Source: a virus
Lineage: Duplodnaviria; Heunggongvirae; Uroviricota; Caudoviricetes
Reading direction: 5' to 3' (one strand)
DNA length: 64,000 bases
IMG/VR virus record: IMGVR_UViG_2778261533_000001
Location: 1 to 64,000 of that record
Every line of letters starts with the position of its first letter. Positions within the stretch are counted from its first letter, which is position 1. Position numbers and translations under genes: made by a program. The notes under the pieces are model-generated. The model had not been told where the DNA came from, did not search any database, and saw only the letters and a program-made list of their open reading frames with translations. Below are positions 55,345-56,154 of the stretch, one piece after another.

Positions 55345-56154
55345 ATGCAAGAAGAGAAACAACACTACCTCTACGTTCTGGTGCCGGAGAACGGAGATAC
55401 TTTTAAAATCGGTATTTCATGTGGTCCATTGGCACGGTTTAAAGGGCTACAAGTGAGTCCCGATTTTGCGCTTTCACGGGTCTATCGTGGTACGCGTTTG
55501 GCAATGGTTAATCTTGAGCGGGCTTTACACGCAACCTTTTTCCCCTGGAATGCGCCGTGGGAGAAAAGCGCCGGTGGCGGGCATACTGAATGGTTTACAC
55601 GAGAGTGTCTTGATAAGGTTTTGGCTCATATCGAATATCTAAATGATATGTGGGGAGGGATTCTCGAGCGCATTAAGTCGAATGATTTACTTCAGCGTCC
55701 AGTAGATGCTGCTCGCTCTTTCGAAAAAGAGTTGGATGTTACTTCTATCGTGACTTTCAAAGATGACGCAGGAATGAGGGACGTGGCTTATGTCTCCATA
55801 TCTGGCTATGAACCGGACGCGATCCGCGCTCAATGTGAATTGCTGAAAGCAGTGTTTATGCTTCGGACTAAATATCCCTGGGAGACAGGGCGGGTGTGCT
55901 TCCCTATGGAAGAGTTAACCGCCACCATTGATTCCCAGCTTTACCACGATAATCCAGAGAAGTTTTTTAGCCTTTTAGCCGGTAATGGGCTTAACTGTGT
56001 GTCCGGGCTGGGGCGAAGTAGAATCCAACATGCCTCGCTCTTCGGTCCCTTCTTTTACGATCGACACGGGTACTTTGAGGCTGAACTTCCGGCGCTTACG
56101 CGTGCTATAGATACTATCGATTTCGAACGATTATTCGCTGCTCTTAGCAAATAA
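55345..56154 (+). CDS. T5orf172 (GIY-YIG-superfamily) domain protein with uncharacterised C-terminal domain (269 aa)
   Basis: N-terminus HYLYVLVPENGDTFKIGIS...ERALHATF...GGGHTEWF matches the T5orf172 pattern; located between incA and parA. Confidence 0.55.
   Translation: MQEEKQHYLYVLVPENGDTFKIGISCGPLARFKGLQVSPDFALSRVYRGTRLAMVNLERALHATFFPWNAPWEKSAGGGHTEWFTRECLDKVLAHIEYLNDMWGGILERIKSNDLLQRPVDAARSFEKELDVTSIVTFKDDAGMRDVAYVSISGYEPDAIRAQCELLKAVFMLRTKYPWETGRVCFPMEELTATIDSQLYHDNPEKFFSLLAGNGLNCVSGLGRSRIQHASLFGPFFYDRHGYFEAELPALTRAIDTIDFERLFAALSK

Follow-up and report, generated by a model that had tools for sequence, protein, structure and literature searches.

I-TevI and SegA-G of phage T4 carry a GIY-YIG-type catalytic domain of ~100 aa at the N-terminus, followed by a linker and, C-terminally, by a DNA-binding domain that contains a helix-turn-helix (HTH). 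They are free-standing between conserved genes, and cause co-conversion or marker exclusion of the flanking DNA. Classical homing endonuclease genes usually show independent presence/absence polymorphism and have paralogs.

The T5orf172 homing genes of vibriophage ICP1 and other phages were described by Barth, Dunham and Seed in 2023, and those of ICP1 are marked by proximity to essential genes, by exchange boundaries and by instability (PMC10448857). Work from the same group showed that T5orf172 nucleases with Rep-type DNA-binding domains, namely Odn and its coliphage homologs, cut the replication origins of competitors (PMC8263062).

The DNA analysed here, a stretch of 64,000 nt referred to as the window, is that of a P1-like phage-plasmid. 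P1-like phage-plasmids, which are widespread and carry ESBL and mcr genes, occur with two replicon types, IncY and p0111, the latter being the type described for SJ46, RCS47 and JL22. A 269-aa ORF with an ATG start (55345..56154, + strand) was read directly from the window, exactly where the sequence-only reading had reported the gene, and is real. The gene itself is not new, since it is already in PHROG 2876 and in RefSeq (as 'GIY-YIG nuclease family protein') and had previously been noted as an unknown ORF; those entries are the same family, do not differ from it, and are annotated with unknown function. Venturini et al. noted '2 orfs inserted between repA and parA' in pSvP1 and assigned them no function (PMC6906374), and the gene's family is likewise left without a function in PMC9603915. 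Papers such as these two do not state that this gene is always the last component of the p0111 cassette, nor the exact boundaries of that cassette, the orphan predicted winged helix, the fast evolution and knock-outs of the gene, or the parallel to ICP1 homing genes and Odn.

Like I-TevI and SegA-G, the encoded protein has a GIY-YIG-type N-terminal domain, a linker and a C-terminal domain predicted to bind DNA. Unlike them, it belongs to the T5orf172 subfamily, with KIG in place of YIG, its DNA-binding part has no sequence similarity to theirs, and homing is putative. With the ICP1 homing genes it shares the pairing of a T5orf172 catalytic domain with a separate DNA-binding domain (here a predicted one), as well as a stand-alone position between essential genes, an exchange boundary and frequent frameshift or nonsense alleles. 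It differs from them in that the nuclease domain is N-terminal and its partner is an orphan winged helix rather than CapR, DUF723, DUF4397 or RepA_N; in that it occupies one locus, has no paralogs and is bound to one replicon type; and in that it lies in a plasmid maintenance core and not in a lytic-phage gene cluster.

Boundaries of the p0111-type replicon cassette

When the window was compared to P1 by blastn, homology was found at 50139-53971 (95.7%) and 56221-60000 (99.3%), with none between. The features of this interval and its right flank are as follows.

53972..56220, no strand assigned: p0111-type replicon cassette, 2249 bp, replacing the incC iterons, repA and incA of P1 IncY (blastn against P1)
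53985..54092, + strand: five direct origin iterons at 21-22 bp spacing, core TTGACTATACGCGA (repeat family D1, pattern search)
54168..55052, + strand: repA, Rep_3-family initiator of the p0111 type (Pfam, tblastn)
55051..55314, both orientations: incA-like control iterons, two forward (55051-55073 and 55075-55097; repeat families D1 and D3) and four reverse (55172, 55234, 55266 and 55296; inverted pairs I2-I25)
55345..55644, + strand: predicted T5orf172 (GIY-YIG superfamily) nuclease domain, N-terminal, residues 1-100
55645..56154, + strand: linker (residues ~101-129, low-confidence), orphan C-terminal domain (residues ~130-269, predicted winged helix) and stop codon
56162..56186, + strand: intrinsic terminator at the cassette end (5-bp all-GC stem, 5-nt loop, T6)
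56240..56268, + strand: Ppar, the first conserved P1 feature past the cassette (promoter-like TGTACA-17-TATTAT)
56323..57519, + strand: parA, 99.7% identical to P1 ParA

The left break (window 53972; position 4507 of the P1 record, L001) lies inside oriR, past the DnaA box and the GATC cluster and ~15 bp before the first iteron, and the right break (56221) lies 67 bp past the stop codon of the gene and 19 bp before the -35 element of Ppar. The T5orf172 gene is the terminal element and right-hand edge of a complete alternative replicon cassette, placed between repA with its iterons and parA, at a recombination boundary. Homology restarted at base 56221 in all 15 of the IncY-type plasmid records sampled. 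The distant P1-like lineage L002, described below, and Cronobacter phage JK004 share the left junction inside oriR seen with the window and P1, and their non-homologous block runs from immediately upstream of the first origin iteron to beyond the stop codon of the gene, ahead of Ppar and parA. A DnaA box and a cluster of GATC (Dam) sites are common to IncY- and p0111-type elements, with only the iterons and the initiator swapped.

The repA product matched Pfam Rep3_C (27.3 bits) and Rep3_N (21.9 bits), and is 40.9% identical to P1 RepA (tblastn). The iteron pattern TTGACTATACGCGA, allowing up to two mismatches, gave 10 matches against 0.29 expected; these lie on both sides of repA, and the last iteron ends 30 nt upstream of the ATG of the T5orf172 gene. 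An iteron-like sequence, TTGACTATAAGCGA (one mismatch), is also present inside repA at 54772-54785 and is kept in L002 at 9613-9626. A search for IncY iterons within the window showed these to be absent, and the window therefore contains no internal target or relic of this kind.

The own terminator that had been attributed to the gene is a strong intrinsic one, GCCCC-TGAAC-GGGGC (stem-loop 56162-56176) followed by TTTTTTG, 8 nt past the stop codon. The window Ppar aligns with the annotated -35 and -10 elements of P1 Ppar (L001 6017-6045) via the offset of the blastn alignment, and the annotated P1 record has no CDS before Ppar and parA, in agreement with the sequence-only reading, according to which par directly follows incA in P1. 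The description of the gene as inserted between the incA iterons and parA has to be revised, as P1 homology is absent across all of 53972-56220. A solitary recent insertion was rejected on the basis of this block-wide loss of homology, the presence of the same locus in L002 and the saturated synonymous divergence (dS) between the two lineages.

No terminator was found between repA and the gene, and no sigma-70-type promoter was found there in either the window lineage or L002; a short AGTGGT element lies upstream of the ATG in both lineages. Given the lack of an own promoter and of a separating terminator, it is plausible that the gene is read through from the RepA-autoregulated repA promoter across the control iterons. 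Apart from the T5orf172 gene, the segment from the iterons to Ppar contains no plausible ORF; the only ORFs that overlap the gene are out-of-frame artefacts that translate the iterons.

A T5orf172 domain and an orphan C-terminal domain

Residues 8-85 of the window protein matched Pfam T5orf172 (PF10544) with 27.5 bits (E 4.6e-6), above the gathering cut-off of 20, covering profile positions 2-87 of 101, and PF10544 is also precomputed for the protein clusters P0001 and P0004. The motifs cited in the sequence-only reading were located at residues 8-12 (YLYVL), 21-25 (KIGIS) and 81-84 (TEWF), and its assignment of the N-terminal ~100 aa to a T5orf172/GIY-YIG-type domain is borne out by this profile match. 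The core T5orf172 motif set is complete, with the beta1 Tyr, the KIG of beta2, a conserved Arg ~8 residues on and the putative metal-binding Glu of EWF, and Y8-L9-Y10, K21-I22-G23, R31 and E82-W83-F84 are all invariant between the window protein and its 43%-identical homolog P0004. By inspection, we take Y8/Y10, the KIG strand, R31 and E82 to match catalytic residues of I-TevI and Odn.

In PHROGs, the whole protein corresponds to phrog_2876 (640 bits, 269/269 positions, function unknown), with a second, weak match to an endonuclease family. The PDB sequence search returned only a marginal UPF0213 GIY-YIG match (E 1.1), and the similarity to Tox-URI2 in the Pfam scan was weak and sub-threshold (E 0.23). 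The protein had no match in the NCBIfam scan, and in the scan of PADLOC-DB 2.0 it matched 0 families at E <= 1 among 5027 models.

The C-terminal ~170 aa are uncharacterised, as had been noted, and have no relatives outside their own family. The C-terminal domain alone gave no Pfam match at E <= 10, and a phmmer search with residues 96-269 against 1.84 billion representative proteins returned only own-family fragments and P0004, and no Rep. Neither BLASTP nor hhalign detected similarity to the RepA proteins of the window, P1, P7, JK004 and L002; BLASTP gave E > 2 for those of the window and P1, and hhalign a probability of 0.1%. With these blank comparisons to P1-family RepA proteins, the idea that the gene is a recently formed Odn-like chimera with a known Rep was rejected.

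Two AlphaFold (AF2) models were obtained from three-sequence alignments, with the window protein and P0004 as targets. A deeper alignment could not be built because scans of GTDB species genomes and IMG/VR yielded near-identical copies only, and for this reason both models are of low confidence overall (pLDDT 60 and 62). Their secondary structures agree, and pLDDT is 70-88 across much of residues 150-215 in both. Both of these low-confidence models predict a winged-helix DNA-binding domain in the C-terminal part, an assignment that we take as reasonably supported. In a Foldseek search of BFVD with low-confidence model 1, a COG5527 plasmid-replication initiator was ranked second (E 0.02, probability 0.98). 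The likeness to the winged-helix domains of iteron-binding Rep initiators is strong in one model only, and 'Rep-initiator-like' is to be read as a lead only. Together, the profile match and the models tentatively suggest a two-domain site-specific endonuclease, in which a flexible linker joins the catalytic domain at the N-terminus to a DNA-binding winged helix at the C-terminus. This orphan part of the protein could provide a new DNA-recognition module.

This predicted architecture is similar to that of Odn (ICP1 gp88) and of the T5orf172-RepA_N proteins of coliphages Inny/Muut, all of them origin-directed nucleases, in which T5orf172 is likewise combined with an initiator-like DNA-binding domain (here in one model), and the setting is in each case one of replicon conflict or replicon modularity. 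However, the DNA-binding domain of Odn is 42% identical to the RepA_N of its target (PMC8263062; PMC10448857), while the domain studied here has no Rep similarity by sequence. The fold that it resembles is the Rep_3 winged helix and not RepA_N, and the window gene lies inside a replicon, whereas Odn is in a lytic phage attacking a satellite.

Replicon linkage, divergence and disruption

When 5.8 billion proteins were searched by word index, the matches were near-identical copies, truncated forms and P0004, the only distant homolog. The full-length cluster has 1241 members, compared to 205 and 229 for the truncated clusters (P0002 and P0003). SJ46, RCS47 and JL22 (gp57) carry the same protein at 97-99% identity. 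It is encoded by 401 PLSDB plasmids, all with at least 90% identity, and the p0111-type RepA by about 398 (394 records with at least 99% identity). A DNA query running from the end of repA through the gene to the start of parA gave 388 full-length matches in PLSDB, along with a class of plasmids that match only from window position 56221. Among complete E. coli genomes, 412 of 5426 (7.6%) have the gene, which is almost always plasmid-borne. In phage phi456 (OR339795.1), the same gene at 39982-40788 is annotated as 'terminase small subunit', a label for which we found no support and which we treat as a probable misannotation.

All of the about 390 p0111-type replicons examined in PLSDB have the gene, and neither paralogs nor a copy away from a p0111 replicon were found in the PLSDB, protein, GTDB and IMG/VR searches. 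The records of P1, P7 and JK004, together with a Salmonella Wandsworth plasmid, have an IncY-like 286-aa RepA and no gene between incA and parA. The Wandsworth plasmid had been considered as a candidate for a p0111 replicon lacking the gene, and was discarded since its replicon is actually IncY-like, of the JK004 type. Absence of the gene co-occurs only with a different replicon (IncY, in P1, P7 and JK004), and there is no independent empty allele. The sequence-only view of an additional gene in the repA-parA interval stands in relation to P1, P7 and JK004, from which the gene is missing, and fails in relation to the p0111 replicons examined, every one of which has it.

The homolog P0004 is encoded on L002, a P1-like contig of 95.7 kb (Logan ERR2144811), where its gene lies between a p0111-type repA with iterons and parA, as in the window. 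Neither PLSDB nor INPHARED contains a counterpart of L002, and PLSDB contains no L002-type copy of the gene; the right flank of L002 is closest to that of JK004 (85.5% nt), whose replicon is IncY-like. Between L002 and the window, RepA is 84% identical, gp23 80%, ParA 89% and ParB 67%, and the iteron sequence is essentially unchanged. The T5orf172 proteins are 63% identical over the N-terminal 100 residues and 31% identical over the remainder. Synonymous sites are saturated in every gene compared between the two lineages. Nonsynonymous divergence is 0.07 for parA, 0.13 for both repA and gp23, 0.26 for parB and 0.52 for the whole T5orf172 gene (N-domain 0.29, C-domain 0.70), and the T5orf172 protein evolves ~4x faster than RepA. 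Since the gene occupies the same locus in a lineage with saturated synonymous divergence, it is, judged by this comparison, an old and retained component of the p0111 replicon type.

Such linkage might be expected of a domesticated T5orf172 protein, catalytically silent or nicking, that serves as an accessory factor for handcuffing, copy number or par/repA transcription. In favour of this are an obligatory and ancient linkage to the p0111 RepA and iterons, a position with the control iterons on one side and Ppar on the other, possible co-transcription with repA and, in one model, a winged helix similar to that of Rep initiators; CapR provides a precedent as a domesticated T5orf172 repressor. 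However, with the iterons near-identical and RepA at 84%, the lineages share only 31% identity in the putative DNA-binding domain, and a domain that diverged while the iterons stayed unchanged is not expected to read those same iterons. Given also that the catalytic-type residues are conserved, that the element persists in the natural copies in which the gene is null (see below) and that IncY replicons function without such a gene, we consider a regulatory role unlikely.

Within the E. coli clade (43 loci), pN/pS is 0.33 for the gene, compared to 0.02 for repA, 0.00 for parA and 0.06 for parB, and the raised value is spread evenly over both domains. The gene is disrupted in 8 of the 43 copies (19%) and intact in 35. 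Premature stops are present in 7 of 42 full-length copies and represent three independent mutations, W68*, S112* (in five copies) and Q228* (in SJ46). The remaining copy (L043 5295-7057, IMGVR_UViG_2645727563_000002) is split by an IS200/IS605-type element; this element consists of a TnpB-like 389-aa ORF and a 141-aa Y1 transposase-like ORF, and replaces codons ~99-175. No stops were found in repA, parA, parB, gp23 or upfA at the same loci. The stops and the IS insertion, with none in the neighbouring genes, indicate that the gene is dispensable for maintenance and often lost.

The even pN/pS of 0.33 and the 19% of null alleles are also what might be seen in a decaying passenger, that is, a former homing endonuclease gene that became fixed, whose target is gone and which is now functionless and drifting to loss. 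Its pN/pS is nevertheless well below 1, most copies are intact (in the sample of 43 as in the clusters of full-length and truncated proteins), and both ORF and motif survive saturated synonymous divergence, so that we give this explanation a low probability. Were it correct, the present results would be a useful annotation and nothing more.

Possible roles of the gene

Abortive infection, exclusion and post-segregational killing had been proposed as roles from the sequence. None of the three has direct support, as the PADLOC scan was blank, there is no partner gene and about one in five copies is null; exclusion, in the form of a nuclease acting against competing elements, is the most plausible of them.

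If the gene encoded a toxin that stabilised the plasmid prophage by post-segregational killing, its place in the maintenance core would be fitting, and the sub-threshold Tox-URI2 similarity would point the same way. The cassette contains no antitoxin partner gene, however, and a stable nuclease toxin would by itself give no addiction. P1 already has phd-doc and res-mod for the addiction role. As null alleles are common, with about one-fifth of copies knocked out without loss of the element, an addiction role is argued against, and we regard it as very improbable.

Another possibility is a single-gene anti-phage defence nuclease that protects the host by abortive infection or by degradation of phage DNA. 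A predicted nuclease domain on a temperate element, with a fast-evolving specificity domain and the frequent loss-of-function alleles of costly defence genes, would be in keeping with this, and T5orf172 domains do act in phage-satellite conflicts. On the other hand, none of the PADLOC models matches, NCBIfam is blank, and both of the deeply diverged lineages have the gene at the same position of a single replicon type. Known defence cargo occupies variable hotspots, where it is gained and lost. We therefore think that such a role has a small chance of being correct.

Our best explanation, to which we assign a probability of roughly 0.4, is that the gene encodes a selfish or competitive site-specific nuclease, either homing-endonuclease-like or directed at competitors, which is located at a recombination boundary. 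The gene would then probably not be a maintenance function, and would instead be a long-standing passenger of the p0111-type cassette. We infer the nuclease activity and the DNA binding of the C-terminal domain from the domain match and the models, and the identity of the target and any effect on drive or exclusion from the arrangement of the locus. The nuclease would be expressed, possibly by read-through from the repA promoter, and would recognise a site that an allelic or competing element has and its own cassette lacks. An IncY-type P1 relative, with flanks 96-99% identical to those of the cassette, would be the most obvious target. Once cut at this site, the competitor would either be lost or be repaired by recombination with the nuclease-bearing genome, with the whole cassette being copied in. 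A block-wise swap of cassettes with fixed ends would follow from such cutting and recombinational conversion.

Two traits of homing genes are found at this locus: the position at a recombination boundary with essential-gene neighbours, and frequent degeneration (8/43). A third, presence/absence polymorphism independent of the replicon, is missing among the about 390 p0111 replicons. The lack of independent polymorphism and of paralogs and the long retention at one locus are consistent with a gene from which the replicon has come to benefit, and retention through saturated dS fits a replicon-useful function at least as well as pure selfishness.

In a more specific version, which we hold to be doubtful, the gene would encode a replicon-borne, origin-directed nuclease whose predicted Rep-like winged helix recognises the iterons of a rival, e.g. 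the IncY iterons on both sides of repA in classical P1, or a site next to them. Cutting of the rival origin would eliminate the rival, or convert it to the p0111 cassette by way of the 96-99% identical flanks. That the cassette extends exactly from its first iteron to a point shortly after the nuclease gene would follow from a replicon drive directed at origins. If true, this would amount to gene drive acting on an entire plasmid replicon, and to nuclease-based plasmid incompatibility.

If the selfish or competitive nuclease of our preferred explanation is active against competitors, it would provide a mechanism for replicon swapping among phage-plasmids, for the outcome of superinfection between P1 variants, and for a type of incompatibility that depends on neither iteron titration nor partition. 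Activity would also extend the idea of T5orf172 homing and of Odn from lytic vibriophages to enterobacterial plasmid prophages.

The same element carries a homing element of another type. The dmt ORF (47331-50372, minus strand; Dmt, 1013 aa) has a 1020-bp insertion at 49119-50138 relative to P1 dmt. The insertion is a 340-aa intein with a LAGLIDADG endonuclease (Pfam LAGLIDADG_3, 31 bits; Hint_2, 28.6 bits), with junctions between GGTPC and FTAGH and between VVHN and CQAFS, and interrupts the catalytic PCQ motif in the half of Dmt that is a C5-cytosine methyltransferase. This LAGLIDADG intein indicates that homing elements are active in this lineage.
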